Below are positions 2,793-53,418 of a stretch of 64,000 nt of DNA, piece by piece. The stretch comes from a virus (taxonomy: Duplodnaviria; Heunggongvirae; Uroviricota; Caudoviricetes). The stretch spans positions 9,962 through 73,961 of IMG/VR virus record IMGVR_UViG_3300021255_003500. One strand, given 5' to 3'. Within the stretch, counting starts at the first letter, position 1, and the number at the start of each line of letters is the position of its first letter. The position numbers were made by a program, and so were the translations under genes. A model generated the notes under the pieces. That model saw only the letters and a program-made list of their open reading frames with translations, was not told where the DNA came from and made no database searches.

Positions 2793-2816
2793 CCTCCTTG
2801 GGAAAGAGGTGAAACA

Positions 2817-4436
2817 ATGCGAGGAGGATTTTCTTTTGATGGCGTTGACATTGCCGATCTCGGACTTGAATATGTGCCGGACAACGCCAACACCTATGTC
2901 TGGGGACCGGCTGCATGGCAGGGACATGAGCAGAGTTTCGAAGGACATGACGGCGCATATTTCTATGGCACGACCGTGAAGCCAAAAGACTTTGTGCTAC
3001 GGTGTATCTATGAGGACACCCTGGTAACCAGCGGCAGCTTGTCCAAAGTTTTCGCGTTCTTCAAACGTGGACGTTCTGGCAAGCTGGTCTTCCAGCGCAG
3101 ACCGTGGATCTGGTATCTGGCAAGAATTACCAGTATCGACGCCAGGCAGATGACCAACAAATACAACGGTGTACTGACCATCAACATGCGTGCTTATTAT
3201 CCCTTTGGCAGAACGGACTATACGACCGTTCCTCCGGACTACGAGTATGCGGAAGACATGATAGCAAACTCCGGTATGATACCTGGAACTGTCTGGGATA
3301 CTAGCCGGGACTTCGCTGCGGATGGACCGATCACAGAACAGAAGGAGTTCATTCTGTATAACCCTGGCAGCGAAGATGCGCCGGTAGCAATTGAGATTGC
3401 TGGTGACACAGGTGACGGCGTTCGGATCGCCAATGTGGAAACCGGGCAGAAGGCAACCTTCGTAGCGCTGACAAAGACGCTGACCACCAACGCGAACAAG
3501 TATCTGACCCTGGACAGCATGAATGGCAAGGCACTGCTGACCAACGGACTTGAAAGCCATTATGCTTTTCTCTACCATGACAACGGCGTAATTAACTTGA
3601 AGAGCGCGTTTCCTGTTGTCCGGGATGTGGAGATCACTGCCGAAGCAAACAGCCATACGATCTACAGTGACGGCAAGTTTACGGAAGACATGAAGGGCAA
3701 GTACATCGGGTATCTGAACAGTGATACGGTGACCTATGTCTATACGTACAGTCCGCTTGGATATCTGCAGACCTCGGAAGACGAGAATGGCATTAGCCGG
3801 TACAACTACACGAACGGTGTGTTGACCAGCATTGAAAAGCCAGACCACAGCATGGTCACATTCACATACGATGCCAATGGCAAGCTGACAGAAAAGAATG
3901 ATGCCGGTATTGTTTCGACATATACCTATGATGAATCCGGCAGGCTGCTGGAGATCAACGAGAACGGCGCCGTCCGGCAGTATACCTATAACAGTCTTGG
4001 TCTCCCAGCAACGCTGACGCAGAATGGCAGCATTCTGGAAACATATACTTATGACGCGCATAACCGGCTGACCACCGTTACTTACGGAGATGGCAGGATT
4101 ACAAAGCTGACCTACAACGACAATGATGACATCATGTACTCCGTGACCGGGACAGCGCAGGAGATCTATACCTACCGGAATAATAAGCTGGTGGCCGTGA
4201 CGCACGCAACCATTTCTGAAGACGACGCGATGTTCAATAATGAAACCTCCGGCGTTACTTACGCGGAGATCCTGGATGTCGTCAGTCCGTATGAAATAAC
4301 GGTCAGCAAAGCTGCTGCGGAGAACATTGCGACAACAGCAAACATCATGACCATGAACAAGATCGTGGTAACACCGCTTGGAGAAAGCATGGAGCTGACT
4401 AGGCTGGTGTTCAGATATAAGCCAACATTCTCTTAA
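2817..4436 (+). CDS. Distal tail protein (Dit) with a C-terminal YD/RHS-repeat extension.
   Basis: N-terminus MRGGFSFDGVDIADLGLEYV is typical of siphovirus Dit. The C-terminal half carries repeated YTYDxxGRL / FTYDANGKL YD motifs. Strong RBS. TAA stop. Confidence 0.75.
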   Translation: MRGGFSFDGVDIADLGLEYVPDNANTYVWGPAAWQGHEQSFEGHDGAYFYGTTVKPKDFVLRCIYEDTLVTSGSLSKVFAFFKRGRSGKLVFQRRPWIWYLARITSIDARQMTNKYNGVLTINMRAYYPFGRTDYTTVPPDYEYAEDMIANSGMIPGTVWDTSRDFAADGPITEQKEFILYNPGSEDAPVAIEIAGDTGDGVRIANVETGQKATFVALTKTLTTNANKYLTLDSMNGKALLTNGLESHYAFLYHDNGVINLKSAFPVVRDVEITAEANSHTIYSDGKFTEDMKGKYIGYLNSDTVTYVYTYSPLGYLQTSEDENGISRYNYTNGVLTSIEKPDHSMVTFTYDANGKLTEKNDAGIVSTYTYDESGRLLEINENGAVRQYTYNSLGLPATLTQNGSILETYTYDAHNRLTTVTYGDGRITKLTYNDNDDIMYSVTGTAQEIYTYRNNKLVAVTHATISEDDAMFNNETSGVTYAEILDVVSPYEITVSKAAAENIATTANIMTMNKIVVTPLGESMELTRLVFRYKPTFS

Positions 4437-4448: not shown

Positions 4449-7400
4449 GTGCTTCGATACAAACGAAACCTGGCGTTGGATATCTTTGACTATGCTGGAC
4501 ATAAGATCTGCAATCTGTATGACAACAGCGGAGATATCAATGGACAGGCTACCAACGTGGTGGTAACCACAGAGCGCAACGGATGGAAGGAGCTTTCCTT
4601 CACTATTCCATCCGTTTGCGAAAACGCTGACGGCAGTCAGGAGGACAACTTCCGGGTCGATCTGCTGAAAGCGGACTATCGGATCCGGTTGATAGACGAC
4701 GATGGAACGGACTGGTATATCATTTCTGAACCTAAGATCGTTCACAATAAGGCGATGAAGAGTGTCAGCGTGACAGCCGGACATATCGCCCAGCTGCTGA
4801 AGACGAAGAACCTTGGACTGGAATTCTAGGACGAGGAAGGGAACAACGTTGGAACAGCGGAGGAGCTGCTGACAACCATTCTGGATGGTACAGGCTGGGA
4901 GCCAGGAGAAGTTGCTACCTTTAAGGAAAAGATGAGCGGCGCCGTGAAGTACAGAAGTCTGAAAGCTTCCGCAAAGACAGGCGCGTTCAAGCTGATCTCC
5001 AACATGTGTGATCTGTTTGAGGCTAAGCCGATTTATCACGGTGATACAAAGAAGATCGACATCGTTCCCATGAACCCGTTCTCCGAACCAGAAGACGGTT
5101 CTCTGCCGGATATTGCAGACGAAAAAAAGTCCAAGGTGATTGAGCTTCGTTATGGCAACAATGTCAAGAACGTTACACGAACGCTGAACACAGAGAACCT
5201 GGTGACGAAGTTGTATGCCTACGGTGCTTTCGGTGATAAAACCAGCGGTTACTGCGGCATCGACGAATGGGTGCACAATGAGTACATCCTGCAGCTGAAC
5301 AATGACGTTCCGGCGGGCAAGGAGTGCGTGCTGGAGATCACCAACGAAGCAACAGGGATCACTTGGAAGCGTTACTTCACGCCGTATGAAGACTTAACAG
5401 TCGGTACGCAAGTGATCTGGTCCGTACTGGATCCTGCGTCCATGAGCTATGTCTGGAACGAAGACGCCGAGCACGCCTATCCGGTTTATCAGAAGCGTAC
5501 ACAGGATGAGCCAGCAGCAACAACATTGGTGGAGACGCAGTCTGTTACCAACTATTTCTCTTTCCTGATGGACTTCGACTATTATCGGGAAGTAGATCTG
5601 CTGACAGACGAGATGATCCAGACGATCGCAGAATACCAGCGTAAGATGCCGGAGCTGCAGCGGATCGTATCAGAGAAAGCAACCCTGTTTGCAGAGAAAC
5701 TGACAGAGCTCAGCGAGATCGTTGGCAGCGGCAACTTCTGCAAGCTGGCGATCAGTGACTATGCCAACAATACAGGCTATCTTCGTCTGACCCTGGATCG
5801 ATCAGAAGACCCGAAGGGTGCGATCTACCGAACGGACTACACGGTCCGGGAGAACAAGCAGTTCAAGTGGCGTGAAGCTGAGAAGCTGAAGGAGAACGGA
5901 GACCCGCTGAATGACGCGGCGTCGATCGTCTATATCATTCATGATCGGAATCCTCTGTCTTACGATACTGCTTATATCAAGGAGATCGAATGGGAGGAAG
6001 GCGATGAGAAGCGCGAGAAGCCGGTTGCTTTTACCCTTTGGCTGCCCTTCACGGAAGAATACCTGGAAAACTTCTCAGATAACCATGTATTCCTGTTTGC
6101 CAGTCACACGGTGAACGGACGGCTTGGCGCTTATCAGACAGCGGACGAGGCTGCGAAAGCCGCGCTGGAATCCACGACCAAAGTGGTTACGGAAAGACAT
6201 CCGGTGTACTTCTCCCCTACCACACCAGACATTGCCATCGAGAATATCCAGGGTTATGCCTGGTGGTGGAAGTACAACAACACGGGTGCGCCATCGGAAA
6301 TGTATTTTTGCTATCGCTACAGCGACTCTTCCGAGTATGCCAGCAGAATCACAGAAGGCGACACCCGGTGGTACCGCATGCATTTCGACAGTACTTTTCC
6401 TATTGCCGCAGCCAAGGACTATTTCTACAACTGGAAAGAGGCGGTCCTTTATCGACTGAACACCGACAACGAGTGGGTCAAGTATAATGAGCGTTCTTCC
6501 GCAGAAGACCGTATGGTTGCCAAGCTTGGATCGATCTTCCGAAGCTGTCAGACGAGAGACGCGCTGTATAACGGCGAGTATCAGTACTATACCGTGGAGC
6601 TGGACACAGATCTGCCAGTTGGCAACTATGCCTTTGCTGACAACTATGGGAATTATTACGCCTTCACCACCAAGACGCCGCTGACTGCCAATGACAAGCT
6701 GGTTTACGATACGACAGAGCGCTGGGTGATCGCAACAGCAAAGTCAAACGATGTCGAGGATATGACCAAGGAAGAGATCATCGACATGACGCTGGAAGCA
6801 AAGGACTATCGTTTTGACAATGTCTATATGCATGCAGCCAATGTGGTTGGCAGAACAGTCTGGGAACCGGGCGCACTGGAGATCATCGAAGGCGCTACCG
6901 TAGAGACAGAGGACTCTGAAAAATACCGTTCTGGTTTCTGCCCCGTATATTCGAACATCGAATATCAGATCAGCGGACTGGCCGGAAACATTGATGTTTA
7001 TACGTACACGATCAACCGCACTTTCCAGGATCATCGGGTGATCAACGCTGTGAATGGCACGATGACAACACCGAACAACTGCCGGTTCATGCGGTTTGTT
7101 TATAACCCGACAGCCAACAATTATACGCCCAGCGATATCCAGAAGTATCTGAACGTAGCAGCGCTGAGCAAGGATAATGCTTTCGTGGTGGACGAGAAGG
7201 AATACCTGCTTTTGCCGCAGCCAAGTGAAGGCAGTGGAGAACTGAAAGGCATCATCCCTTTGACAGGGAAATTCCTGGCAACCGCAGACGAAGCGTTCCT
7301 ATCCGCCAAAGTCATCATGGAACAGGCACAGGCGGATGTGAAAGAGCTGGAAAGCAGACTGGTAAACGATCTCGGAGAGATGTATCGGGAAGGCTACTGG

Positions 7401-8615
7401 CAGAAGAGCGACTATGTGGACGGCGACGAAGAGAAGCTGTACAACGACGCGCTGGAGAACCTGGAAGAGATCGCATTCCCGGAAGCCAAATATCAGGTAG
7501 GCTATCTGGATCTGTATGGCACAGAGCAGCCAGACTTTGGCGTTACAGAGCTGACCAGTGATGTTTTGTGGCCGGATATCAGCATTGACTACGCGGTGCA
7601 TCTGATCGACGACGAGATCGGGATCAGCAAATGGGCGTTCATCGATAAGCTGTCCAAGTGTTATGACCAGCCGTGGAAGACCACGCTGACGCTGAATACA
7701 AAGCTCAGTACCATCGGGCAGCACAGCTTTACGGATGTCATGACCCATATCGCAGAGGTAGCCAATCAGGTGAAAGGCAAGATCGAGGTCTACAACCGGG
7801 CAGAAGTGGTCAATTCTACCGGTCAGGTAGCAGCGGAGATCCTGGAAGGAACCATCGACGCCAACCGGCTGATGATCACCGGAGGCTCCTCTACCTGGTA
7901 TACGGACGACCGGGGCAATCTGATGTTCCAGAGCGCGGATGGCAAGTCTGCCATGGCGATCACAGGCAACGGCTTTGCCATAGCTAACAGCAAGGATGAA
8001 TGGGGCGACTGGGTATGGCGCACCTTCGGTACAGGAGACGGCTTCTCGGCAGACATGATCGTAACAGGTTTCATGTAGGCAGAGCGGATCCTTGCCGGAA
8101 CGATCACTGCCAGCAAGCTGGCTTCCGATGTTGGCGCCAGTCTGGACGTAAGCTCCAATGAGTCTCTGAACCTGGTGGTTGGCGATGCAGTATCCAGGAT
8201 CCGGATGACCGATGAAGAGATCGTCAGCACGATCATGGAAAGTTCACGGTATCAGGCAGACAAGGAAGCTCTGATCGGCAGTGCTGTGCAGCAGACAACC
8301 TCTAACCTGGCGGTTCGTTTCAACACGATCGAGGCGCAGCAGGCGGTTGTCGATGGCAAGATGGAAACAATCAACAATGTGGAGTCCTGGTTCAAGTTCA
8401 ATAACGATGGGACTTTTGACATCGGAAAGTCCGACAGTCCGTTCAGCGTCAAGCTTGGCACCGAAAAGCTTCAGTTCATGAAAGACGACAAAGAGATGGC
8501 GTACTTCCAGAACAATACGCTGTATAACACAGCAGCGGAAATTTCCAATAGGCTGAAGCTTGGCAACTTTACCATAACGGTAACAGACGACGGCGATACG
8601 TTGGTTTGGAATTAA
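4449..8615 (+). CDS. Tail-associated/tail-tip protein (Tal-like), 1388 aa. It reads through in-frame TAG codons at 4827-4829 and 8076-8078.
   Basis: Track ORFs 4449..4829, 4932..8078 and 8175..8615 are all in frame 0. The gaps 4830-4931 and 8079-8174 have no other stops, and the sequence across the TAGs is protein-like (...GFM(TAG)AERILAGTITASKLASDVGASLDV...). The N-terminus resembles the prophage tail endopeptidase N-domain. True stop is TAA at 8613. Confidence 0.75.
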
Positions 8616-16448: not shown

Positions 16449-16460
16449 GGAGGTGGAAAC

Positions 16461-17405
16461 ATGTCTTTAACAATCAGTCAACTCGTAATCGGTTCCAAGA
16501 TCCGCGTTCAAGAAGGTGAGGACTGGGTAGATTATTGGGTGATGGAAAACGACGACGCAGGCGCAGTGATCATGCGGGACAAGCTGCTGGCCGACAGCCA
16601 GAAGCGGAATACCGGCAATGCAGCCAAATGGCCAGACAGTCCGCTGGATGTCTGGCTGAACGATAGCTCGGAAGGGTTTATTTCTACCCTGAGTACAGCC
16701 GCACAGAATGCGCTGGCTCTGCGTAATATCGAGACTTATGTCTTTGAAAATTCCGCGATACAGCAGATCCCGCGAAAGGTGTGGATTCCAAGTTACATGA
16801 ACCTGATGGGCACCGGCGACGGAACGATCCCCGCAGAAGGGAAGGACTGGTCCGCGCAGCTGTATCTGATCACAGGCGCCTGGGGCAATGATGCCCGAAA
16901 GGCTATGGTGACGGACACCGCAGGATACTGGTGGACCAGAACGATCAAAACCCAGTGGCTGGGCTATCTGGTGAACACGAGCGGTGCGCTGGTGGACGAC
17001 AACCCGAAGAGCGGCTACAAGATCCGGCCGGTGCTGAACATTGCTCCGACGACCGTTGTCGTTGACGCAGGCGACGGCGCTTATGCGCTGACAGGGGACG
17101 GCAATGTTCCCACGTATCACATCGAAGCGACGGAAATTGTCAGCAAGTGCGTTGAACGTCCAGTAAAGGCGCGGGTTATCTACAATGCCGTCGATCTGAC
17201 CAATGTCAGCGTCTGGGTCAGCAATAACGCCGGGGATGTTGAACCTGTGTGGGTGAATGCCACCTCGGGCAACGAAGTAACGCTGGCGAATGATGCTAAG
17301 ACAACAGATAATTGGATGCTTGGTGTCAAGTATTATGGAGAATGCACCGCACCAAACCATGGCTATTTCACGGAGCCTGAGCTGTTCACGGTGGAGGTGA
17401 TCTGA
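16461..17405 (+). CDS. Hypothetical tail-module protein.
   Basis: ORF with RBS AAGGAGGTG. TGA stop overlaps the next start. Confidence 0.5.
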   Translation: MSLTISQLVIGSKIRVQEGEDWVDYWVMENDDAGAVIMRDKLLADSQKRNTGNAAKWPDSPLDVWLNDSSEGFISTLSTAAQNALALRNIETYVFENSAIQQIPRKVWIPSYMNLMGTGDGTIPAEGKDWSAQLYLITGAWGNDARKAMVTDTAGYWWTRTIKTQWLGYLVNTSGALVDDNPKSGYKIRPVLNIAPTTVVVDAGDGAYALTGDGNVPTYHIEATEIVSKCVERPVKARVIYNAVDLTNVSVWVSNNAGDVEPVWVNATSGNEVTLANDAKTTDNWMLGVKYYGECTAPNHGYFTEPELFTVEVI

Positions 17406-19343: not shown

Positions 19344-20138
19344 ATGACAATGGCTGTATCAGCAAAAGAATTCTCCATGCAGGGAGATAAGTATCTTGGT
19401 CGGCCTTACAGTGAGATGGATTGCCAAGCTTTCGTGGAACAAATGATGTCGGATGTCGGCATCAAAACGGATCTGAAAGGATCCAACGCCTGGTTCAGAA
19501 AGGTAACGTGGGTTGGAACACCCGAGGAATGCAAAGCCAAGTTTGGATAGATCCCGGTGGGGGCTCTCCTCTTTATCTGGAAAGATGACGGAGGAGAGAT
19601 CCCCCGGGGGTATAAGGACGGACTTGGCAATGCTTCGCATATCGGTGTCTACATTGCTCGCGAAGAAGGTGCGATCCATTCCAGCAGCAGCAAGCACAAG
19701 GTATGCTACAGTAAGTTCTCTGGCAAGAGTATTAAAGGTGGCTGGAACAGAGTTGGCTTATGGGATCGCTTCGATTACGGGCAGCACATCAACCAAATAC
19801 TGAACCAGGACTCAAATCAAAATGAAAGGGATGAGAGTCCTATGTTATATACTGGTATTATCACATCTTCCAACGGAAAGGGAGCCAACCTGCGATCAAA
19901 GAAATCCACTAGCTCCGATCTGATTGTCAGGATGGGAGAAGGCGACAGCGTTGAAGTGCTCGAAGACAACGGCAGCTGGCTGAAGGTTACATATGGAACC
20001 TATACCGGCTACGTGCTGAAGAGCCTGGTTGCTCAGGCGGACTACGAGAAGGAGACCACGCCTGTTACCGTAACTCTGCCGTACAATATTGCCCTTGAAC
20101 TGAGAGACGCCCTCATCAATGCGATGGGGGTGGGTTAA
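19344..20138 (+). CDS. Endolysin with an NlpC/P60 (CHAP-like) cysteine peptidase domain and a C-terminal SH3b domain. In-frame TAG at 19548-19550.
   Basis: Track ORFs 19320..19550 and 19557..20138 share frame 0 and are separated only by TAG. The catalytic Cys (SEMDCQAF) lies upstream of the TAG and the His (NASHIGVY) downstream. The SH3b-like C-terminus reads GANLRS...WLKVTYGTYTGYVL. Confidence 0.7.
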
Positions 20139-20139
20139 A

Positions 20140-20496
20140 GTGGAGAACTTAACGCTTGACAACCTCAAAGTAGCTGTCCTGGTGATCCTTGGGGTCATGG
20201 CGCTGCTGGTGTCGGTGGAGAAAGGTATCGAAGCTTTTCATAAGCTTTTCAGAAAGCGCTCTGAGGATCTGCAGCAGTAGCAGAACCAACGGATCAGCAC
20301 ACTGGAAACCAGAGTGGCTTCCTGTGAAAGCAGGCTGACCCGTGGCGACGAGAAGTTTGCTTCCATTGAGGAAGACAACAAGCAGATGCTTGTAGCGCTA
20401 AACGCAATGCTGATGCATATGATCAGCGGAAACGATCACGCAAAGCTGACCAGCGTCAAGCAGCAGCTCGATCAGTATCTGGCATCCAGAAGGTGA
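20140..20496 (+). CDS. Lysis-cassette membrane protein with an N-terminal TM helix and a coiled-coil tail. In-frame TAG at 20278-20280.
   Basis: Frame 1 is open from GTG 20140 through the TAG to TGA 20494. Contains LKVAVLVILGVMALLVSV then EDLQQ(TAG)QNQRISTLETRV.... Confidence 0.5.
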
Positions 20497-21061: not shown

Positions 21062-22039
21062 TCAAGCATTGATAGCTTTATACATATCTTCGAAGGCATC
21101 ACCATAAAGATTGATGTAAGTATTGTAGGTAACTGTCGTGCTGGAATGACCGAGGATCTTGGACAGGATCTTGACATCCATGCCCTTATAGTAGCAGTTG
21201 GTGGCGAAGGTGTGGCGCAGAGCGTGCTCACCGTAGTAAGGAACCATAGCCAGAGAGCAGAGCTTCTTGGTTTGGTAGACCAGCGCTGCGTAGGACAGGC
21301 GTTCTCCCCTGCTTTGGAAGACCCATTCGGTGTCAGAGAGGGTTCTGGCCTTCATCAGCAGCTCAATGGCATGCTTGGTCAATGGTACGATACGCACACT
21401 GGATAAGGATTTTGGAGATTCCTGGATGTAGGCGTTGGTTTTGTGCATCAGGTTGACAACGGTAGCGCCAATCCGGATGCGGCAGCGGCTGACATCTACG
21501 TCCTTCCAGCGAAGAGCCAGTGCTTCTCCTACCCGAAGTCCTGTTTCGATAATGAATCCGATGCAGATAGCTCCGATACCGCCATCAGCATCCAGGACGG
21601 AAGCCAGACGGGCCTGTTCCTCTTTGGTATAAGCCTGGATATCCTTCTTCTGCTTCTTGATGTTGGTAGGCGCAGGGAGATTTACGCCTACGGTAGGATC
21701 ACTTTGGATGATCCGCATGGCAGCTGCCTGCTTGAGCGGCGCTGTCAGCAGACGATACTGCTTCTGGATGGTGGTCAGGCTGTATCCGTCGTCTGCGAGA
21801 CGATTGAGGTACAGCTGCACATCGAAGAATGTAATCTCTCCCACGGGTTTCTGGGAAATCGGGTACTTTTCCAGGGCCTTGAAGGATGTAACCAGCCTCT
21901 GGTAGGAAGAGGGCTTGATGGCTGTGCGTTTGAATGTCGTCAGCCAGACATCGATATACTGCGAGAGAGACATTGATGCTTGCAACATGGTATATTTTCC
22001 TTTCTCTCGCTCGAATCCTATGCTGTTGTCAAGGTTCAC
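21062..22039 (-). CDS. int: Tyrosine site-specific integrase.
   Basis: C-terminal R..HxxR..Y catalytic motifs (HALRHTFATNCYYKGMDVKILSKILGHSSTTVTYNTY). Convergent with the late operon. Confidence 0.9.
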   Translation of the reverse strand: MNLDNSIGFEREKGKYTMLQASMSLSQYIDVWLTTFKRTAIKPSSYQRLVTSFKALEKYPISQKPVGEITFFDVQLYLNRLADDGYSLTTIQKQYRLLTAPLKQAAAMRIIQSDPTVGVNLPAPTNIKKQKKDIQAYTKEEQARLASVLDADGGIGAICIGFIIETGLRVGEALALRWKDVDVSRCRIRIGATVVNLMHKTNAYIQESPKSLSSVRIVPLTKHAIELLMKARTLSDTEWVFQSRGERLSYAALVYQTKKLCSLAMVPYYGEHALRHTFATNCYYKGMDVKILSKILGHSSTTVTYNTYINLYGDAFEDMYKAINA

Positions 22040-25333: not shown

Positions 25334-26085
25334 TCACGACACTGCTTGTACATCGATACTATCAATGTAAAGCAAGAGTTCTTTTTTACGATAAGGCAGT
25401 CCGTATTTTTTTAACCATTTGGTGACAGCATGTCCAGTAACATCATACCGTCTTGCGATTTCAGATAAGTTGCATGACGTATCTTCTAACAGTTTAATCA
25501 ACGCATCCTTTGAAGGCATAAGCACACGTTTGGGTATTTGTGCCATCATGTCATTCGCGTATTGCCAACGGTATCCACCAGCAGTTTTGGTAATACCTCT
25601 AACGCAACTGTTGATGCAACTTACATGAACGTTGGATTGCTTAGACGCTTCTGCCAGAGAATTATATGTGGCCATCAATTCTCCAGACAAACTATATTGC
25701 TGCACTGCTCTTCCTTTTCTGGGCTTACGTAAATTATTTTCATAAGCGTGTATTAAATTGTCCTAATACGTTGCCCACTCTAAATTATCAACACAATTAT
25801 TCGTCTTGTTTCCATCTTTATGATTGATCTCGTCTTTCTGATCTTCTTGATTTAAGAAAGCTTCTGCTACACACCTGTGAACGTAGACTTTCTTAAATGA
25901 ACCGTCTTTTCTTGCAGAAAAGCATAAGTATCCGCTGTTATCTACTTGCGGATGCATTATACTCTCACGAACGGTCATCGTTTGTTTGCCGCATTTGACA
26001 ACACGCTTTACGCTGCGTATGTTTCCTTGGTTGCTTACATCATAGTAACCTTCATATCCAACTACAGGTCTCCATTCTTCGATAG
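25334..26085 (-). CDS. HNH homing endonuclease with NUMOD4 and HNH domains and a C-terminal HTH DNA-binding domain. In-frame TAG at 25763-25765.
   Basis: Track ORFs 25763..26263 and 25334..25705 share a frame. The former ends in TAG. Readthrough gives ...NLEWATY(TAG)DNLIHAYEN..., which matches the conserved HNH_3 NLEW.T..EN..HA motif. The N-terminal 50 aa of the track ORF overlap tRNA genes, so the start is probably TTG near 26085. Confidence 0.6.
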
Positions 26086-26110
26086 TAACCAACTCCTTTG
26101 CAAAGATAAG

Positions 26111-26194
26111 CGCGGTGTGAAGGATTTGAACCTTCGGAGCCAACGGCTCAACGGTTTTCAAGACCGCCGCAATCAACCGCTCTGCCAACACCGC
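26111..26194 (-). tRNA. tRNA-Ser (anticodon UGA). Class II tRNA with a long variable arm and G73.
   Basis: GCGGTGT / TTGGCAGAGCGGTTGATTGC / GCGGT-CTTGAAA-ACCGT / variable arm GAGCCGTTGGCTC / GGTTCAAATCC. Confidence 0.8.
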
Positions 26195-26200
26195 AAAGGG

Positions 26201-26285
26201 CGTGGAGTAGAGGATTTGAACCTCTGGAGGCTTCCACCTCGACGGTTTTAGAGACCGCTGCAATAAACCGCTCTGCCAACTCCAC
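26201..26285 (-). tRNA. Amber suppressor tRNA (anticodon CUA). It is a tandem paralog of tRNA-Ser(UGA), with a long variable arm and discriminator G73.
   Basis: GTGGAGT / TTGGCAGAGCGGTTTATTGC / GCGGT-CTCTAAA-ACCGT / variable arm GAGGTGGAAGCCTC / AGAGGTTCAAATCCTCT / ACTCCAC-G. The loop CT-CTA-AA gives anticodon CUA. Confidence 0.8.
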
Positions 26286-26539
26286 GTAAAAAACAGCCCG
26301 AATGCTTTCGCTTCACCACAAAACTACTCGCATATTTACGTAGGGGTTCGGGCTTGTCGACCCCTGCCGGTTTGTCAGTTCCGGCAACTGGTACCTTTGT
26401 CGCATGGTGGTGCATCATGCGGTAGGCGTACAGTTCCTGCGGGGAACATCCCCGCTTCAGATGGACCCGGACCTTTCGGTCAGCCCAGACATATGCCCCG
26501 AGCGCTACTTTCCTGATCAACGGATAGTTTTACAGGGCA

Positions 26540-26626
26540 TCAGTCGTCCTTTCCAATTCGAAAGACGCAGCACAGACAGAAGCCTGCGCATACGCCCAGC
26601 AGAAAAGTAAAAAGAATAGCCATCAT
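26540..26626 (-). CDS. 28-aa hydrophobic Cys-rich peptide (MMAILFTFLLGVCAGFCLCCVFRIGKDD), translationally coupled to the NifS stop (ATGATG overlapping TGA).
   Basis: Start codons overlap the NifS stop, with RBS GGAGAAA. Confidence 0.3.
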   Translation of the reverse strand: MMAILFTFLLGVCAGFCLCCVFRIGKDD

Positions 26627-27750
26627 CGTTTCTCCTGTAAGGTTTCCCGAATTTCGTTGGCTGCCTCCACCAGAATGTCGGCAGCTTTCATAATGTCTGA
26701 CAAAGAAGTGTCTTCTGTCAGTGTCAGACGGATGGAAGACAGAGCTTCCTCATCTGTCAGACCGATCGCTTTCAGTACGCGGCTGGGCTGCAGATCGCCA
26801 GAAGTACAGGCAGAGCCGGTAGAGATATACAGCTGCTTCATTTCCGCCCGGATGATCAGTACTTCAGCCGGGACATCCGGAATGCAAATGTTGCAGTTGT
26901 TCGGCAGCCGTTTGTTGCTCGCAATGGTTCCGTTTACAAAGGCTCCGGGTATTCTCTGCAGCAACTGTTTGATCAGAATGTCTCTGTTCTGCTCCATCCG
27001 ATGGATCAGCTCCGGATATGCTGTCACTTCTTTCGCTGCGTCCGCCATTTCCACAAAGCCTTCGACATTCTCTGTTCCGGCACGCAGTCCAAGCTCCTGA
27101 GAGCCGCCATGAATCAGCGGATCCAGCTTTGTTCCTTCGCGAACATATAAGGCGCCGGTCCCCTTGGGTCCATGGAACTTATGCCCAGAGATGGACAGCA
27201 GATCGACGCCCAGATCATTGACATCGATGGGGATCTGGGTGAATGCCTGCACCGCGTCGGTGTGCAGCAGGATATTCCGATCGCCGATTACCTGTTTAAT
27301 CTGTTTGATGGGCTGAATGCTGCCGATCTCGTTGTTCGCCAGCATGATGCTGATCAGGATCGTCTGATCCGTGATCGCAGACGCTACCTGTTCCGGGAGC
27401 ACAAAACCCTCATCCGTAACGGGCAGGTAAGTCACACGAAAGCCATGCTTTTCCAGCCACTTGCAGCTGTTGTAGACAGCAGAGTGCTCGATCTGCGTGG
27501 TGATGATGTGGTTGCCGCGATCCTGGTTGGCAAAAGCAGCGCCTTTAATCGCCAGGTTGTCGCTCTCGGAGCCTCCGGAGGTCAGAATGATCTCCTTCGG
27601 CTGAGCATGCAGCAGGTTCGCAATGGTTTCCCTGGCATCGTTCAGTGCGTACGCTGCCCTCCGTCCGAGTAAATAAGGAGCTGACGGGTTTCCGACCAGC
27701 TCGCTTTGGGCATACCGTCTTGTGGTAGCCGCGTTGTCCAGATAGATCAT
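26623..27750 (-). CDS. NifS/IscS-like cysteine desulfurase (class V aminotransferase).
   Basis: Motifs SGGSESDNLAIKGAA and ISGHKFHGPKGTGALYV. Likely start is MIYLDNAATT with ATGA overlap to the upstream gene. Confidence 0.8.
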   Translation of the reverse strand: MIYLDNAATTRRYAQSELVGNPSAPYLLGRRAAYALNDARETIANLLHAQPKEIILTSGGSESDNLAIKGAAFANQDRGNHIITTQIEHSAVYNSCKWLEKHGFRVTYLPVTDEGFVLPEQVASAITDQTILISIMLANNEIGSIQPIKQIKQVIGDRNILLHTDAVQAFTQIPIDVNDLGVDLLSISGHKFHGPKGTGALYVREGTKLDPLIHGGSQELGLRAGTENVEGFVEMADAAKEVTAYPELIHRMEQNRDILIKQLLQRIPGAFVNGTIASNKRLPNNCNICIPDVPAEVLIIRAEMKQLYISTGSACTSGDLQPSRVLKAIGLTDEEALSSIRLTLTEDTSLSDIMKAADILVEAANEIRETLQEKR

Positions 27751-27986
27751 CACTTGCCTCCCTGACATTCCCGGATATGAAGCCACTCATCCAGGTACTG
27801 GTTGAACTCTTCGATCGTCTTGTTGTACTTTGCAGCAAGGCATTTTTCACAGGTTGGGCGTTCCTTCAGCGCATTGCAGCAGCGCTCATCCCACTTGTTC
27901 AGTCGCTTTTTGCAGATGTGGCAGTGCCATTCGGTCCACTGCTGCATCTTCGTCTCTCGCATGTTTGCCATCAGATCACCGCTCAC
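27750..27986 (-). CDS. Small Cys-rich (Zn-finger-like) protein.
   Basis: CHIC...CC...CEKC pattern. Confidence 0.45.
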   Translation of the reverse strand: MSGDLMANMRETKMQQWTEWHCHICKKRLNKWDERCCNALKERPTCEKCLAAKYNKTIEEFNQYLDEWLHIRECQGGK

Positions 27987-36254: not shown

Positions 36255-36704
36255 TTAGGCAAAAAGCTGCGGATTCCGCCTGGCATACTCGGCGATCAGC
36301 AGCGCCTCCGCCATGCCATCGGAGGGCTTTTTGCAGCGGGGTGTCGGAAGCAGATTCACATCCGGAAACAGCCGTTTGCATACGTCGATGGACTGCTGTT
36401 TGTCCGAATGCAGATCAAACTCCTTCTTCCAGCGCTGCGGCGGTACCAGGATATATGAAATATGGTAAGCGCTCAGCACGCCTTCGATGAAGCCGGCAGA
36501 CTTTCCGAAGTTAAACATGGAAACAACGCCTTGTCCTGGCATCGCGCCAACCTTTTCCACACAGGCGCAGACCTCCTGCCCCTGTATCTAAAGCAGTCTC
36601 TCCACAAACGCACCATTGTCCCACGGAAACACCGCAGGCGGAGCACCACAGAAGAGCGCGGCGAAGCCGCCCTTCGCACCGGGATCAACACCAAGATAGA
36701 TCAT
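36255..36704 (-). CDS. RuvC-like Holliday junction resolvase (phage type). In-frame TAG at 36588-36590.
   Basis: Upstream extension of track ORF 36255..36560 through the TAG gives N-terminus MIYLGVDPGAKGGFAAL, which is the canonical RuvC start with catalytic Asp. The C-terminus has DGMAEALLIA. Confidence 0.65.
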
Positions 36705-39523: not shown

Positions 39524-40198
39524 TCATTCCGGCGTGCGCTCTTGCGGCGCCGCCGTGGCTTCTGCCTCCTCGGGACAGATAAAGCGCTGGTATAAATCGT
39601 CGAAGATAACGGGAATCCGTTCATGCGCCCTTTCCAGCAGATCCTTCATCAGCAGACGCATGGGAGGATAAGCGGCGATATCGCAGCGCAGAGCAAAGAT
39701 ATGCCGCCACTCCCGGAGGTTGGCCTTCATGATGATTTTGCAGGCGGTGGAATTCGGCAGGACTTCCCGCGCCTGTTCAGGCTTGGCGCCGTTCTCGATC
39801 ATCTGCTTGTAGGCATTCTCCGCCATGCGCATGGCACTGTGCCAGATGGCGCTGCGTTCGTCCCGGTCATTCCCGTCGTACCAGTCCGGGGCGATGAAGG
39901 TGATGTCGCCGGTCTTGGCTTCCTGGATATAGCGCTGGGATTCCACGCAGAAGGAAGCCAGACGGTGGCGCGTCAGCTCTGCCAGGACCGCCCGGGAGGT
40001 TTCAATCTCCACGGTCATGTCCGCAAACTCCAGCGGGGCGCCATGACCGCGCTTCAGCAGACCGTTCACAAAAGACTCCGCAGAACCCTGAGTGATGCGG
40101 TCCTGGCTGGCGTAGCAGTTGCGGCCTGCGTATTCAATATCCTGCAGCGGCCAGCGGTTGGCGCTGCGGATCATAACTGATTGTTCCTTGATGATCAT
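39524..40198 (-). CDS. thyX: Flavin-dependent thymidylate synthase.
   Basis: RHRxxS motif (TRHRLASF). Confidence 0.8.
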   Translation of the reverse strand: MIIKEQSVMIRSANRWPLQDIEYAGRNCYASQDRITQGSAESFVNGLLKRGHGAPLEFADMTVEIETSRAVLAELTRHRLASFCVESQRYIQEAKTGDITFIAPDWYDGNDRDERSAIWHSAMRMAENAYKQMIENGAKPEQAREVLPNSTACKIIMKANLREWRHIFALRCDIAAYPPMRLLMKDLLERAHERIPVIFDDLYQRFICPEEAEATAAPQERTPE

Positions 40199-40554
40199 TA
40201 CGTCGCCTCATTTCTCGAAATCGGCGCAACAGAAAAGACAGGCTCTTCGCCCGTCATCAGCTGCGGCACCGTCGTACCGGTATGAATGTGCATTTTGCGG
40301 TCGTGGTTCAGACGCTGCAGCTCCTGTGTGATTTCCTTCACGGAGAGCCTGGTCGCTATCACCTGACCGTTATCCAGGATCACCAACTACCTGGTCAGAT
40401 CTTTTCCGGAGCCGATGATCAGACGCTTTTCTCTTTTCTCCTGCTGGTAAAGCTCTTTTGCCTGACGCATAGACATGCCAAAAACAGTCATGATCCGATC
40501 TGCGTTCACCGCCAGCTCATTCTAAAGGTATATAAAACGAATCGGATATTCCAT
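40198..40554 (-). CDS. Hypothetical protein (about 118 aa) with two in-frame TAG codons (40387-40389 and 40522-40524).
   Basis: Upstream extension of track ORF 40198..40386 gives continuous protein-like sequence ...IIGSGKDLTR(TAG)LVILDNGQVIA.... The track ORF would otherwise start at TTG directly after the TAG. Confidence 0.5.
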
Positions 40555-40572: not shown

Positions 40573-40887
40573 TTAAAAGTCAAAGTCCAGATCCGAATAA
40601 ACAGATACGACGCCTTCCACCGATTCACCAACGGAGCCTTCATCCCAGGCATGATGATGCACACCGTACATCATACCCGGCATGGTGGTTCCCAGATGGT
40701 TGTTGTCGGCATCGTAATGTTCCAGTTCAGAAAAGATGCCGGGGGTGGAGCGTCCTGTATAGGCGCCATGCTCATCGGAATGAACATAGCCGCCCAGCAG
40801 GCCTGGCCAGCTTTCGCCAACCAGGTCGCCGTGCTCGTCATAGTGCTTGATGTTGCCAAACAATCCAGGCACAGAGGTAATCTTCAT
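40573..40887 (-). CDS. Small protein with four repeats of a roughly 20-aa unit (PG.FG...HYDEHGxxxGxSxPG).
   Basis: Internal repeats visible in the translation. Confidence 0.45.
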   Translation of the reverse strand: MKITSVPGLFGNIKHYDEHGDLVGESWPGLLGGYVHSDEHGAYTGRSTPGIFSELEHYDADNNHLGTTMPGMMYGVHHHAWDEGSVGESVEGVVSVYSDLDFDF

Positions 40888-42395
40888 GCAGCATTCTCCT
40901 TTTCTGTTAACTCGTGCAATGTAAACTCGTCCAGATAACAGTCTTCCTTGTCAGAGATCAGAGTTCTGTGTCCTCCATGGAAGGCATAGCGCTTGGCCTT
41001 ATGCCACTTCTTCAGAAGGATGAACTGACCCTGTTTGAGCCCGCTGTCCGCGTAAGCTCGCTTGGTCATCTTCATTGTGCCGCTGACACCACGGCGCACG
41101 TTGTACAGCTTCAGCCGCACGCCATAGAGATCGTCCAGCTCCTCCACAAAGTACAGGTTGGAATCCGCATAAGGATCAAAGCTGGAGCAGCGCATGACAT
41201 ACATATTCTCTGCGGACAGGATCTCTTCGATTGGCAGCGGAAAGTCGTCCATCTTCGCTTCCATATCCGTCAGCGCAGAAAGGCGCTTGGTCTTCGTCTT
41301 CTCGGACAGAGTCTTGGTCAGCTTGGATGCGCCGTTGTAGTATTCATCGAACAGCTTCATCAGCTTTCCGCTTTCTCCATAGTCGGAGAAGTACCCGAGC
41401 TTGATCAGCACAGCGATCTGCCGGGTATTGACAGACGTATTGTTCTGCAGATAGTAAAGCACCTGAATAAAGCTGTCAAAGTATTCCCTGCCAGCCTGAT
41501 ACAGCGCTTCCGCAGCTGTCGCAGAGATGAACTTGATGGAATGCAGGCTCTGGGAGATGGTCTTGGCAGACTTGTTGACCAGCCAGTCGCGGTTGTCCTC
41601 GCCGAAATGTCCCGGTGTGACCCGGATTCCCAGATACCTTTTCATTTCCCGGATGATCAGGGCGATCTTTTCCTTGTTGCCCTTCTCTGTGTACAGCTTG
41701 AGCATGGTCACGTAGAATTCGTAGGGATAATAGGCTTTCAGCCAGGCCGCGTACAGAGAATCACAGGCCATGCTGAAAGCATGAGCGGCACAGAACATAT
41801 AGCTGGCTGCGTCGTTGATGATCGTCCAGATCTTATCGACGATGTCCGCAGCTTCCTGATCAGTCGCTCCTTCCTCTTCCTTCAAGCGCTTCGTAAAGCC
41901 TTCCTCGAAACGCTGGCGGAAGGAAGCGACCTTGTCCGCCTTCTTCTTCTTAATGGCCTTCACACAAACATACGCATCGGCAGGAGGGATATTAGCAGCT
42001 TGCAAAACGTGTAAAATCTGTTCATCGTAGAGTAAAAACGAATCTGGTATCTCTTTTGTCTGCAACAGTTTATCCAGAGAAGGAATACCATAGTCAAATC
42101 TGTTTCTGGAAATAAAGGTTTCCAGCATGGACTTGAAGCCAGGTCGTACAGCAGCTACGAAAGCAGCCAGTTCCACCACGTTCTTCGGTTTATACCGCAT
42201 GACCCGTTCGGTGGTCTTCTCCTTTTCACACTGATTCAGACCCAGGGTGAAGCCGTATTCGTACAGCTGCCAGACCTTCGGGTCATCCTTCACCTTCTCC
42301 AGCAATTCGTCCACCGGCATCACCGGCTGACCGATCGCTTCAAATGCTGCGGCAATGGTCTTGACGACATCGACGCGCAAGTAATCCAATGATAC
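40884..42395 (-). CDS. dnaE: DNA polymerase III alpha (DnaE-type), exon 2 (C-terminal part).
   Basis: Motif MFCAAHAFSMACDSLYAAWLKAYYPYEFY corresponds to the DnaE FNKSHSAAYA...WLKAHYP region. The exon boundary at 42395/42396 is inferred from the omega-G and reading frame. Confidence 0.7.
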   Translation of the reverse strand, partial: VSLDYLRVDVVKTIAAAFEAIGQPVMPVDELLEKVKDDPKVWQLYEYGFTLGLNQCEKEKTTERVMRYKPKNVVELAAFVAAVRPGFKSMLETFISRNRFDYGIPSLDKLLQTKEIPDSFLLYDEQILHVLQAANIPPADAYVCVKAIKKKKADKVASFRQRFEEGFTKRLKEEEGATDQEAADIVDKIWTIINDAASYMFCAAHAFSMACDSLYAAWLKAYYPYEFYVTMLKLYTEKGNKEKIALIIREMKRYLGIRVTPGHFGEDNRDWLVNKSAKTISQSLHSIKFISATAAEALYQAGREYFDSFIQVLYYLQNNTSVNTRQIAVLIKLGYFSDYGESGKLMKLFDEYYNGASKLTKTLSEKTKTKRLSALTDMEAKMDDFPLPIEEILSAENMYVMRCSSFDPYADSNLYFVEELDDLYGVRLKLYNVRRGVSGTMKMTKRAYADSGLKQGQFILLKKWHKAKRYAFHGGHRTLISDKEDCYLDEFTLHELTEKENAA

Positions 42396-43420
42396 CCTCG
42401 GTTTCCCGATATTTATGAGGGGTTTAGACTATCTCTTCATCCACTAGGGATGTGTGGCACTTCGACAACAAGAGTTTCACTTGCTGTCTACTTCCTTCCG
42501 GAATAGTCGTTACACCTTACTCCTACTGGAGTCTTGGCACGGTATTAACATGCAGCATAGCAACAATTTCATTTGTTCTTTGTGCAATATCTTCATCAAA
42601 TCTGATTTCAAACAGAGGGATGTGATGCTCAGCACAAAACGTTCGTTTCAAAGGATCTGTTATCTCTCTTTCATATGTTCCAAATTCTGGATAATACGGA
42701 TCGACACGGTAATGTTGAATGCCTTGCATTTCAATCGCCGCAATTATGTGATTGTCAGTATCCAATATTTGGAAATCAAACAATGGGTATGTCCCATTAG
42801 GAGTTTGTAGTTCTTCATGTCTCTTATTTTGTTTGAAACGAATGTTGTTTTGCTAGAGTATCTCTCCGATAATCTGTTCTCCTCTGCTTTTCACACAACC
42901 GCAGCTTTGTGTTTTACCGGAACGCAGTTGCCAACCTTCTACGACAGCCTGATTACCACAATCACAAACACAATCCCACAAGATTTTATGCTGTCCTGCG
43001 CTGGTTATATTTGTTCCATGATATCCTGTAACTGTCAGTTTTCCAAAACGCAAACCAGCCATATCCCGGATAGGTTTATGAAAGTTTTCTTTTTGCTGGC
43101 AACCACAAGAAACTGTAGTCTATTGACGAAGACTCTGCCCAGAAACAACAGTCGTATTACCACAAACACATTGGCACATCCACATTGTTCTGGGTTTCCC
43201 GCTTGGTAAAATGTGATCTGGAGCACGGTATAAAACCGTAAGCCTCCCAAATTGTTTACCGGTTAAGTCTTGAAACTTAGGCATCATACCACCTCCTAAC
43301 ATCAATATGATATTGTTATGCTGTTTAGTCTTTACCGTTAGCGCACATAAGTGCACACCCTACATGTGTAGGTTCACCACATTATCCTATCCATATTGCT
43401 ATGGCAGGGGCCAATTATTT
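42396..43420 (-). mobile_element. Group I intron (IA2, T4 td-like) interrupting dnaE, with an ORF inserted in the P6-loop position.
   Basis: R-like AACGACUAU and S-like AAGAGAUAGUCU elements form P7. A P8 helix and the 5' GGCC/P2/P3-like AACGUGGUAAACC region are present. Homologous to the second copy at 52137..52404, with compensatory helix changes. Confidence 0.65.
42517..43293 (-). CDS. Intron-encoded putative homing endonuclease. It has tandem Zn-ribbon modules (FGRLTV...W.C.C.CGN...SCGC, twice) and a C-terminal Vsr/DUF559-like PD-(D/E)xK region. It contains three in-frame TAGs (43120, 42853, 42523).
   Basis: Track ORFs 43120..43356, 42853..43062 and 42523..42783 all end in TAG and share one frame. 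Readthrough joins them. ATG at 43293 with RBS AGGAGGTG. Confidence 0.5.
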
Positions 43421-45124
43421 AGCCTTCAAATAACCCTGCGCGTCTGCTGTCTGGCCATCGATATAAGCAGCATATACCGCGTCCTTATTCCCGCTCTTTG
43501 CTTTTACCCGCACTACGCCGATCTCCCTACGGAGATCCTTGTCCAGCAGCAGGTGCGCACAGGGATGCGGAGACAAGGAAGTGATAATACCACGGTAAGG
43601 TTTGCTGTCCTCCACCAGGCTCAGGTATTTCTCTTCAACGTAGTCCTCCAGACGCACATCCATCTCCGGATCGTAGTCGGGATCATCCACGTTGTTCTCC
43701 TTCGCATGCTTCAGGTCGGTTTCATAAGCCTGAATCTGCTTGGAGATCTCGTTAGATGTATCAAAATCCAGATCTCTGGCACGCGCCAGGAGCTTGAAAG
43801 CGGACAGGACTTTACAAGTACCGAAGGCGATCATGGGCAGACAACCCCATTCGCCCAGGATCTCCTTACCAGCCTTCTCAAACGCCGGAACGTTGGACAT
43901 ATTCAGATCCAGATCTGGAAGCGCTCCGGAAGCCAGCCGTTCCTTGGAGATAAAACGCTCTGGATACAGCTTCACCGGACATTTGAGTCGGTTGATGGAG
44001 GTGAAACCCAGGGCATAGTTCGTGGCGAAGGATACGCCAGAACCTCTGCCTGTGGTGGTCAGCACACCGCCATATTTGATCCCCTTGTCCACAATATCCT
44101 TCATGCTCAGGAAGTAGTCTGCGGTTCCTGTGTCGGCAACAGCATTCATTTCTTCGTAGAGCTCGGCCCGGTCTGCCTGTGTCGGCAGCCCGGCCTTCGC
44201 GCTGTAGCCCTTCTGCACTTCTTTCTTGTACAGTGCATTCCGCTGTTCCATGGTCAGTTCCGGATGACTGGTGGGGATCTTCTTCTCCGTGGTGAAGTGG
44301 ACCCCCTCAAATTCCCGGAGCTGCAGGGTATTCTCCATGGCTTCCCGGATCTGCGAAGGGCTCAGGATATGCTGGTTCATCAGCAGCTGATACGCTTCGT
44401 CAGCTGTGGGCAGATAGAGATCGAAGTCATCCTCATAGTCATTCTTGATGCCGGAGGAGAGCAGCAGCTCCTCGCGCAGGGCTGCGTCCTCATGCCGGAT
44501 ATAATGACTGTCGGTACCGTAGATCAGCGGGATATGCGTCTTCCGGTACATGGAGAGGATATGCGCGTTGTGCTCCAGCTGGATCTTCTGGGGATGATGC
44601 TGCACTTCCATATACAGGCTGTCCCCGAAGATGCTGTGCAGCTGCATCAAGTATTCCTCTGCGTTCTCATCTCGCAGTGGACCTGCCACGCAGGCGGTGG
44701 TGCACAGAAAGCGCTTGGGATCCAGCCTGGACAGCAGCTCGAAGTCTACCCGTGGCTTATAGTAATAGCCGGAGAGGTTCGCTTCGGACAGGATGGCATT
44801 CAGCTGACGGAAGCCTTCCATGTCCCTGGCAACCAGCACCAGATGGAAGTTGCGTTTATCTTTCAGCTCCGGGTTCCGATCCGGGACGAAGTAGCATTCG
44901 GCTGCGGCCAGTGCTTTCATCTGGAAGCCGTCTGTCGAGTACTTCTTCGCCATCTCTTCCTGCTGCCAGACGTTGGACCGGTTGCCATGCTCACTGAGAC
45001 ACAGCACCCGCTGTCCCCGGTCCCGGTAGACCTTCGCATAGTCTTCGATGGACATGGTGGAGTCCGGCTGCGTCAGACAATTGGAGTACATGGAATGACA
45101 GTGATAGTTTTCGTACTCGATCAA
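43421..45124 (-). CDS. dnaE: DNA polymerase III alpha (DnaE-type), exon 1 (PHP and palm domains).
   Basis: PHP motif YENYHCHSMYS and palm motif GRGSGVSFATNYALGFTSIN. The track ORF continues to TAA at 43415 inside the intron. The 5' splice site is inferred after GCU (43421). Confidence 0.7.
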
Positions 45125-45136
45125 ACGATCACTTCC

Positions 45137-52591: not shown

Positions 52592-53278
52592 TCAGTTGGC
52601 GCCACGGGATTGCCTTGCTCGTGTATTGTGGTGATTAGCTGCACAATACTCATCCCATCCTTCTACTTCAACGAAGCGCCAGGAACGATTGCTTCTTATT
52701 GCGTTGATGTTTGCACGAGAGATGTTGTATTTTTCAGCTAAATCATCCCATGATATATTAGCCATAAGATCCTTTTTGATTTCTGCTACTTGGGTTGCTG
52801 TAAGTTTTGTTGTTTTCATTGGTTCTTCGTTGAGAATTTTATGAATTCTGGTCGCAATCATTTTATCGCTCATCCCTTCCGGGCGTTTTTTGCCAAGACG
52901 AGTACGCGACATTTTGGCTTTCGTTTCTTCGGAAGCTTTCTTTCCAGTATTTAATCGACGATTCAGTTCACCGAGTTCTTTGCGTCTGTATTCCGGCAGC
53001 GGGACGCCGTGTGCTCCAGCTCCTCCGTCGGCGATGTTACAACAATGCCCAACTTCGCGAGCTTTAGCAATGTATTCAATTTCTAAATCGTCTAATAAGC
53101 TTTCGTCTTCAACTGATTTTAATACTGAAAATTGAAAAGCTTCTTCTCCATACTTATTATACGAAGATTGCAACCATTTGTTATCATGCTGGTTAGTTCT
53201 TAACTTCCAACGATGAAAACAATAGCGTTTTTCAAAAGACTCTCTTGTCTGACCAACATAAACCAAACCAGAAATCAA
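52592..53278 (-). CDS. GIY-YIG homing endonuclease with a C-terminal NUMOD/HTH DNA-binding domain.
   Basis: ISGLVYVGQTRESFEKRYCFH matches the GIY-YIG motif. C-terminus has TKLTATQVAEIKKDL...SRANINAIRSNRSW. Confidence 0.7.
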   Translation of the reverse strand: MISGLVYVGQTRESFEKRYCFHRWKLRTNQHDNKWLQSSYNKYGEEAFQFSVLKSVEDESLLDDLEIEYIAKAREVGHCCNIADGGAGAHGVPLPEYRRKELGELNRRLNTGKKASEETKAKMSRTRLGKKRPEGMSDKMIATRIHKILNEEPMKTTKLTATQVAEIKKDLMANISWDDLAEKYNISRANINAIRSNRSWRFVEVEGWDEYCAANHHNTRARQSRGAN

Positions 53279-53418
53279 GTTTCGGATCTCATAAATGCCT
53301 ATCTAATTACGATAGATATCTTCGTTGACGAAATGCATCATATGATCACCACCTTTCATTTGTAATACACGAGTTTAGGGTTTCCCCGTTATTCGGAGTT
53401 CAATAACATGTCGCCATG

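Follow-up and report, generated by a model that had tools for sequence, protein, structure and literature searches.

A tRNA gene with the anticodon CUA in a phage genome raises the question of which amino acid the phage inserts at TAG. According to Borges et al. (10.1101/2021.08.26.457843), only TAG-to-Gln and TGA-to-Trp are found in phages whose code differs from that of the host; among 180 phage tRNA-Sup surveyed, the predicted isotypes were Gln, Trp, Ile and Tyr, with no Ser (PMC10879173); and annotation pipelines assume that TAG is Gln (code 15 gene callers). For the phage described here, a sequence-only reading of the DNA had predicted that TAG is read as Ser and not as Gln. The homologue columns and the serine-family tRNA reported below support this prediction, which we consider likely to be correct. 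To our knowledge, no listed genetic code contains a TAG-to-Ser assignment, and we found no report of a natural TAG-to-Ser phage in the literature searched.

The window, i.e. the whole stretch of 64,000 nucleotides that was analysed, has a G+C content of 51% and belongs to a phage of the gut or rumen with a genome of ~107 kb. Parts of the window recur with 100% identity in a 107-kb ENA contig and in L054 and L055, two shorter contigs reaching further upstream, and locus L181 is the same 107-kb genome. The source samples bear the accessions ENA ERZ12302814, SRR873598 and JGI 3300002641. Because the window passes the start of the 107,054-bp ENA contig and resumes at its opposite end (window 63503-64000, L301), the genome is circular or circularly permuted. 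Plus-strand tail and lysis genes extend to ~20.8 kb, and beyond this point the integrase, tRNA and replication genes are on the minus strand. Megablast with 24 kb identified no relatives among GenBank phages, and look-ups for strain variants of the region with the tail and tape-measure genes retrieved nothing but the same three identical assemblies. The Pfam annotations of the window and the loci examined contain no aminoacyl-tRNA synthetase and no release factor. NrdG, NrdD and ThyX genes lie near the cysteine desulfurase gene adjoining the suppressor tRNA gene. DNA polymerase III alpha is encoded in two ORFs (window 40884-45136, minus strand), with PHP/pol3_alpha in 43415..45136 and the finger domain in 40884..42389; the ~1 kb between the two DnaE halves holds a zinc-ribbon/DUF2726-like ORF with TAG codons, and Rfam at the gathering threshold detected no intron family in this insert.

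TAG is a sense codon in this phage. The 64 well-scoring ORFs stop at TAA (33), TGA (29) or TAG (2), and both TAG "stops" are internal to one tail gene of which all three pieces score as coding, leaving a genuine TAG terminator in 0 of the 64. In the tape-measure frame, which with its extension in L054/L055 spans at least 4112 codons, there are 22 in-frame TAG and no TAA or TGA. The Pfam NLPC_P60 match spans residues 19-131 of the endolysin, across the TAG, and this TAG is kept in strains that are 95-97% identical; similarly, the TAG of the holin-like gene is kept in strains L092-L094. In the GIY-YIG ORF, a start downstream of the TAG would drop the GIY motif. The TAG codons cluster in late genes: the tape measure contains 22, the tail protein two, and the endolysin and holin-like genes one each; none is in frame in the large replication genes or the integrase gene. 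The features discussed here are listed in the table.

Table. Coordinates of the suppressor tRNA, its neighbours and the TAG-containing genes in the window.
Feature	Position	Strand	In-frame TAG	Evidence or remark
Giant tape-measure-like protein, C-terminal 904 codons	3..2714	+	225-227, 348-350	20 more TAGs upstream of the window
Tail protein (YOMG_N + Prophage_tail)	4449..8615	+	4827-4829, 8076-8078	Pfam domains flank the first TAG
NlpC/P60-SH3 endolysin	19344..20138	+	19548-19550	TAG between catalytic Cys and His regions
Small membrane/coiled-coil (holin-like) ORF	20119..20496	+	20278-20280	Context CAG CAG TAG CAG
NUMOD4/HNH_3 homing endonuclease	25334..26092	-	25763-25765	Pfam; TAG inside HNH_3; directly downstream of both tRNAs
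tRNA-Ser(UGA)	26111..26194	-		ARAGORN (26110-26194), Rfam 57.1 bits; downstream of the suppressor
Class II tRNA, anticodon CUA, predicted serine-type amber suppressor	26201..26285	-		ARAGORN, Rfam, fold, covariation
DUF3800-XI RNA motif	26441-26487	-		Rfam, 60.6 bits, E 6e-11
NifS/IscS-type cysteine desulfurase	26623-27786	-		E 2e-122; directly upstream of the suppressor
RuvC-like resolvase	36255..36704	-	36588-36590	L001/L034 homologues, 62-63% identical, read through
RemA-like small protein	40198..40554	-	40387-40389, possibly 40522-40524	Weak Pfam match
Zinc-ribbon/DUF2726-like ORF in the DnaE-splitting insert	42517..43287	-	43120-43122, 42853-42855	782 homologues
GIY-YIG homing endonuclease	52592..53341	-	53303-53305	Pfam; TAG just before GIY motif

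The tape-measure ORF has some further peculiarities. Its upstream part (L055 2-12340) has a G+C content of 36-43% compared to 51% for the window, and the ORF contains three copies of a 27-nt tandem repeat, the unit of which starts with TAG (X-EFQTKPTS). Tape-measure frames of 3900-4100 or more codons are also present in the relatives L060, L062 and L063, with 0, 3 and 2 TAGs, respectively.

The gene with the anticodon CUA is one of seven tRNA genes that ARAGORN identified in the window, all on the minus strand. The hand-made fold of the sequence-only reading, i.e. a class II tRNA with the anticodon loop CU-CUA-AA, is borne out by three approaches: ARAGORN finds the same gene with the anticodon cta (26198-26286, minus strand), the Rfam tRNA model scores 26285..26201 on the minus strand with 54.3 bits (E 6.6e-9), which is the lowest score among the seven tRNAs, and the minimum-free-energy fold is a cloverleaf (z-score -2.3) that leaves the anticodon unchanged. 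The label "Pyl" given by ARAGORN derives from the anticodon alone. The tRNA has a 7-bp acceptor stem, a 5-bp T stem, a 9-nt D-loop and, as had been read, the discriminator G73. The 14-nt variable hairpin was also read correctly, but its stem has 5 bp in the fold, including one U.G pair, with a 4-nt loop, instead of the 4 bp originally counted; the variable region as a whole is 16 nt. The neighbouring tRNA-Ser(UGA) is 6 nt away as described (spacer 26195-26200) and 80% identical to the suppressor; the near-identity claimed for the D-arm, anticodon stem and T-arm holds, with one D-arm base differing and the anticodon stem and T-loop being identical. Pair 2:71 is U-A in the suppressor as reported, while the G-C with which it had been contrasted is not found: both the tRNA-Ser(UGA) of this phage and the suppressor orthologues have C-G here. 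In the ~83 kb that were read of the 107-kb genome, there is no second tRNA(CUA), and the other ~24 kb could hold one. The DUF3800-XI motif lies ~155 nt upstream of the suppressor, inside a 337-nt non-coding stretch in which neither a sigma-70-like promoter nor a terminator was found.

An exact search of IMG/VR with the anticodon arm identified orthologues of the suppressor on contigs L001 (110.6 kb) and L034. Both share 87-88% identity with it and also adjoin a tRNA-Ser(UGA), in reversed order. We aligned the three suppressors (window, L001 and L034) with their three neighbouring tRNA-Ser, i.e. six sequences. In this alignment, 98.7% of the cells are paired and nine pairs show compensatory change; the covarying pairs include 2:71 (U-A or C-G), two pairs of the T stem and four of the five pairs in the variable arm. 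The observed covariation was reached by 0 of 500 shuffles, and slid controls collapse. Thus, the cloverleaf and variable arm have been kept by compensatory change, arguing that the suppressor is under selection as a class II tRNA. G1-C72, C11-G24 and G73 are invariant, with G73 present in each of the six tRNAs. With respect to the pairs defined in E. coli, whose rules may not be those of the host, G1-C72 and C11-G24 are present and G2-C71 is absent; the tRNA-Ser of the phage itself also lacks G2-C71 because its pair 2:71 is C-G. When 426 tRNAs predicted from the window and from related loci were compared, the nearest non-CUA relatives of the suppressor were all tRNA-Ser (80, 78, 76 and 74% identity), and the best class II tRNA for Leu or Tyr reached at most 69% identity. 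Judged by its sequence, the suppressor is therefore a member of the serine family by ancestry. The earlier description of a "duplicated" tRNA-Ser stands as far as Ser ancestry is concerned and only partly for the duplication itself: the tandem pair is present in three phages, but its order is opposite in the other phages.

Other identities fit less well. tRNA-Pyl, a compact tRNA in which the variable loop has 3 nt and the D-loop is short, was rejected in view of the 16-nt variable region and 9-nt D-loop; tRNA-Sec in view of the 7/5 acceptor/T geometry and the anticodon CUA; and Tyr or Leu identity in view of G73, where class II tRNA-Leu and tRNA-Tyr have A73, and of the lower similarity. The Gln isotype, which is class I with U1-A72, does not match the class II structure with G1-C72.

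Ser-type phage suppressors appear to be rare. No suppressor tRNA is present in 106 related loci (26 around the Band_7 gene and 80 around NrdD), and a scan of a genome collection returned a single copy, on a contig of a MAG that was binned as Anaerovibrio; this Ser-like tRNA(CUA) has the acceptor GGAGCCG and is masked in its 3' half. A search of IMG/VR with a general class II CUA pattern gave, among the matches listed, mostly tRNAs of another family that is Gln-like and has a long variable region. These 85-92-nt tRNA(CUA) are widespread, have a Gln-like acceptor and D-arm and the conserved variable-region motif CYTCTGARG, are present in L003, L012, L201, L193, L216, L241 and ~30 other IMG/VR loci among the matches listed, are unrelated to the Ser-type suppressor, and in several cases are part of large tRNA arrays of 100-200-kb phages. 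Finally, two class II tRNA(CUA) with an apparent A73, i.e. Tyr-/Leu-like and not Ser-like, are present in 130-410-kb rumen phage contigs (L223 8838-8923, L250 1412-1497).

To determine which residue TAG replaces, we scored alignment columns of homologues at five of the ~32 TAG sites. For the first site in the tail protein, 4827, homologues were collected by exhaustively searching 1.84 billion cluster representatives with a profile, keeping one per 50%-identity cluster. Among the 143 representatives, 117 have Ser, while Asp (11), Asn (5), Thr (3) and Gln (2) are infrequent. This TAG lies within the conserved motif LGLEF-X-DEEGNNVGT (peptide context NLGLEF-x-DEEGNNVGTAEELL), and the closest homologue, which is 73% identical, has Ser. 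The codon at this site is TCT or TCA in the relatives L060, L061, L062, L064 and L065, and TAG in the closest one, L052. At the second tail site, 8076, 92 homologues have Ser (48), Asn (12), Arg (11), Lys (10) and in no case Gln, and the listed homologues with the context [FY][LM]-x-AERI have Ser. At the endolysin site, 19548, 56 of 119 homologues have Ser, followed by Cys (10), Glu (10), Thr (9), Arg (8) and Gln (7). Ser thus accounts for 82%, 52% and 47% of the residues at these three sites. The two columns of the DnaE-insert ORF appear neutral between residues and are uninformative: Gly prevails at 43122 (97 of 120, Gln 3) with the closest subfamily being variable (G, N, E, E, K, R), and the column at 42855 is mixed (Asn 22, Lys 18, Ser 17, Thr 14 and Gln 12 of 116). 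The log2 column probabilities, summed over all five columns with pseudocounts, are -11.0 for Ser, -24.1 for Arg, -24.4 for Asn and -27.7 for Gln. In other words, Ser leads the next residue by ~13 bits and Gln by 16.7 bits.

Comparisons with single homologues provide weaker evidence; they are mixed, yet compatible with a Ser reading. The TAG of RuvC aligns with Lys in the L001 and L034 homologues, that of HNH with Lys in an alignment to I-HmuI that runs through the TAG, and one TAG of the tape measure with Ala. L052 has a TAG at a position where the window has Ser, and TAGs of L034 align with Thr/Ser and with a variable site. Taken together, the comparison with homologues that the sequence-only reading had proposed favors Ser; among the proteins it named, the endolysin favors Ser, the DnaE insert is neutral, and the single comparisons for RuvC and HNH place Lys at the TAG. 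Twenty TAG sites of the tape measure fall outside the scoring because searches with this protein yielded no usable homologues: a 1121-aa piece with eight TAGs had no matches in a homologue search, tape-measure queries had none in viral contigs, and a metagenome scan gave five weak matches in short contigs, at least one of them marine.

Based on these data, we suggest that TAG is probably read as Ser, and not as Gln, in this phage, with the charging of the tRNA being predicted. Ser is favored because three strong, independent Ser columns and the identity of the tRNA outweigh four contrary sites. These four, i.e. three sites in a related strain and the site in the holin-like gene, are also the reason why our confidence is not higher. 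The strain in question, L092 (Logan SRR28623933), has 95% nucleotide identity over 6 kb aligned to window 15792-21769 and keeps both TAGs of the lysis region. In its DUF6273 gene (16449..17405), however, TAG stands in place of AAG, CAG and CAG of the window, and two of these three additional TAGs are in conserved contexts. Together with the TAG inside a CAG run in the holin-like gene, this pattern would be explained by cheap, synonymous C-to-T transitions if TAG were Gln, while it would require Gln/Lys-to-Ser replacements if TAG is Ser. The pattern can nevertheless arise under a Ser reading because a tolerated TAG arises most easily from CAG. Moreover, the DUF6273 gene of L092 is 86% identical to that of the window compared to 95-97% in the flanks, 34 of the 113 codon differences are non-synonymous, and two other Gln sites are changed to Arg and His in L092. 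This segment of L092 may be recombinant. For the DUF6273 gene (16461..17402), searches of viral contigs and of GenBank phages yielded no relatives.

The best surviving alternative is that TAG is Gln as in code 15, either because the anticodon CUA makes the suppressor a substrate of GlnRS or because another Gln-type suppressor of the phage or the host decodes TAG. CUA anticodons attract E. coli GlnRS, and phage TAG recoding is described as Gln in the literature. In addition to the L092 and holin-like sites, TAG is found at conserved Gln sites in the PhoH and homing-endonuclease homologues of L067, L081 and L012, e.g. in GEGS-Q-LW of PhoH. The other phages with TAG at Gln sites share PhoH and Band_7 genes with this phage; thus, code 15 exists nearby, and recombination between lineages with different meanings of TAG is conceivable. 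On the other hand, Gln is at or below background in all five columns (2/143, 0/92, 7/119, 3/120 and 12/116), the suppressor has G1-C72 and a long variable arm instead of the class I structure with U1-A72 of tRNA-Gln, the 83 kb read contain no other tRNA(CUA), and many Firmicutes lack GlnRS. We therefore regard a Gln reading as improbable.

Slightly less probable still is a reading in which TAG is ambiguous or specifies another residue, because several synthetases charge the tRNA (with Ser and Ala, Thr or Gln) or because Ser-tRNA(CUA) is converted. The atypical U2-A71 pair, the mixed residues aligning at some TAG sites, and the residue mixtures obtained with engineered Ser-like amber suppressors in E. 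coli (PMC5389517) speak for it, as does the gene for a PLP enzyme that adjoins the suppressor. The latter enzyme, however, is a NifS/IscS cysteine desulfurase with only a marginal match to SepCysS, and we therefore rejected a conversion of Ser-tRNA by it. Also, it is specifically Ser that is found in three independent columns, the 7/5 acceptor/T geometry is unlike that of tRNA-Sec, and the large variable arm is unlike that of tRNA-Pyl. Least probable, and effectively refuted, is that the suppressor is a decayed copy of tRNA-Ser and the TAGs are genuine stops in split genes, pseudogenes or leaky contexts: its Rfam score of 54 bits, the lowest of seven, and a z-score of only -2.3 are set against orthologues that keep all stems by compensatory change, 22 TAG but 0 other stops in 4112 codons, which is beyond chance, TAGs that split single enzyme domains and persist over 3-5% strain divergence, and the absence of genes that terminate with TAG.

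How could a phage come to read TAG as Ser? For bacterial SerRS, the determinants of recognition are the long variable arm and acceptor end of the tRNA, and the anticodon is ignored. As a consequence, a tRNA-Ser copy with CUA is a ready suppressor without the need for a new enzyme, and the SerRS of the host is expected to charge the tRNA(CUA) with Ser. We propose that the suppressor was derived from a tRNA-Ser by a change of the anticodon to CUA, which would take one step from CGA and two from UGA. Host SerRS would then charge this tRNA with serine, the resulting Ser-tRNA(CUA) would compete efficiently with release factor 1, and in-frame TAG would be translated as Ser. The suppressor is encoded in the minus-strand tRNA/replication block, and most TAGs are in plus-strand late genes. 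Because TAG is a sense codon in late genes, full-length late proteins depend on the phage's own tRNA. This arrangement may have a role in timing in which the translation of late genes would be tied to the expression of the phage tRNA, matching a proposal by Borges et al. (10.1101/2021.08.26.457843).

Phage stop-codon recoding by a suppressor tRNA is known; what would be new here is the amino acid, together with the class of the tRNA. The code 15 gut phages (crAss-like, Lak, Garnet, Topaz and phAss-1) also encode a tRNA-Sup(CUA) (10.1101/2021.08.26.457843, PMC10607447). As in the phage described here, TAG is concentrated in their structural and lysis genes and absent from the integrase gene, the host presumably uses the standard code, and there is no phage synthetase. 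Thus, this phage shares with code 15 phages the combination of a tRNA(CUA) and essential genes with in-frame TAG, while alignment of TAG with Gln and the Gln isotype are absent: code 15 phages have class I suppressors whose isotype is Gln (or Trp), and their TAG codons align with Gln, whereas here the suppressor is a class II tRNA of the Ser family and TAG tends to align with Ser.

For the decoding itself, the closest precedents include laboratory suppressors. The classical serine amber suppressors are E. coli supD (serU), in which the anticodon of a tRNA-Ser changed from CGA to CUA, and phage T4 psu1+. In both, SerRS still charges the tRNA because it ignores the anticodon, and Ser is inserted at UAG, as proposed here. 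However, supD and psu1+ are single-step laboratory mutants in genomes in which TAG is a stop, while the phage suppressor is natural, present in at least three phage lineages, has undergone compensatory evolution, and is accompanied by dozens of obligatory in-frame TAGs. A further precedent is provided by the allo-tRNAs: Mukai et al. proposed that those with Ser identity are natural missense/nonsense suppressors, and their CUA variants insert Ser in E. coli provided that they carry G73 (PMC5389517). Similar to the phage suppressor, allo-tRNAs have Ser identity, a long variable arm and a non-Ser anticodon; by contrast, they have 8/4 or 9/3 acceptor/T stems, are mostly bacterial and often lie near toxin-antitoxin or mobile elements (PMC5389517), while the phage suppressor, which lies in a phage tRNA cluster, shows the canonical 7/5 geometry.

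Other loci point to additional meanings of TAG. In L061, L062 and L065 (IMGVR_UViG_3300021400_001241, 3300021399_000008 and 3300021387_001417, respectively), a tail gene at ~13.2-17.5 kb of each locus has TAG where 118 of 135 diverse homologues have Leu and the remaining ones Ile, Val or Phe (context RNGWKE-L-SFT). This site is homologous to window 4593-4595 and to residue 128 of ORF 2793..4436. A second site with TAG is occupied by Leu or Ile in relatives. A suppressor tRNA was not found in these three loci. TAG may be read as Leu in this sister lineage. Separately, the tail protein of L052 contains 17 TAGs, 14 of which are in a 15-residue repeat (3570-3830, residues ~1190-1272) of the form AK-x-YTDT-x-X-xxTLx-X, where TAG recurs at two fixed repeat positions.

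We tentatively speculate, as a possibility that is rather doubtful at present, that the meaning of TAG is labile within these ~100-kb rumen/gut phages with giant tape-measure genes, being Ser in this phage and in L001/L034/L052 through a captured tRNA-Ser, Gln in L067 and L081, and maybe Leu in L061, L062 and L065. The Ser and Leu tRNAs, whose synthetases are blind to the anticodon, would then have been recruited for reassignments that are absent from current code tables.

If TAG is indeed read as Ser, this would add a natural TAG-to-Ser assignment, and pipelines with code 15 as the default would mistranslate such phages. The route to recoding would be simple, since any tRNA with an anticodon-blind synthetase can become a suppressor without a new enzyme, and it would work also in hosts without GlnRS. 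The phage tRNA would, moreover, be a naturally evolved Ser amber suppressor available for study. Finally, the apparent Ser, Gln and possibly Leu readings of TAG in related phages would make the evolution of code changes directly testable.
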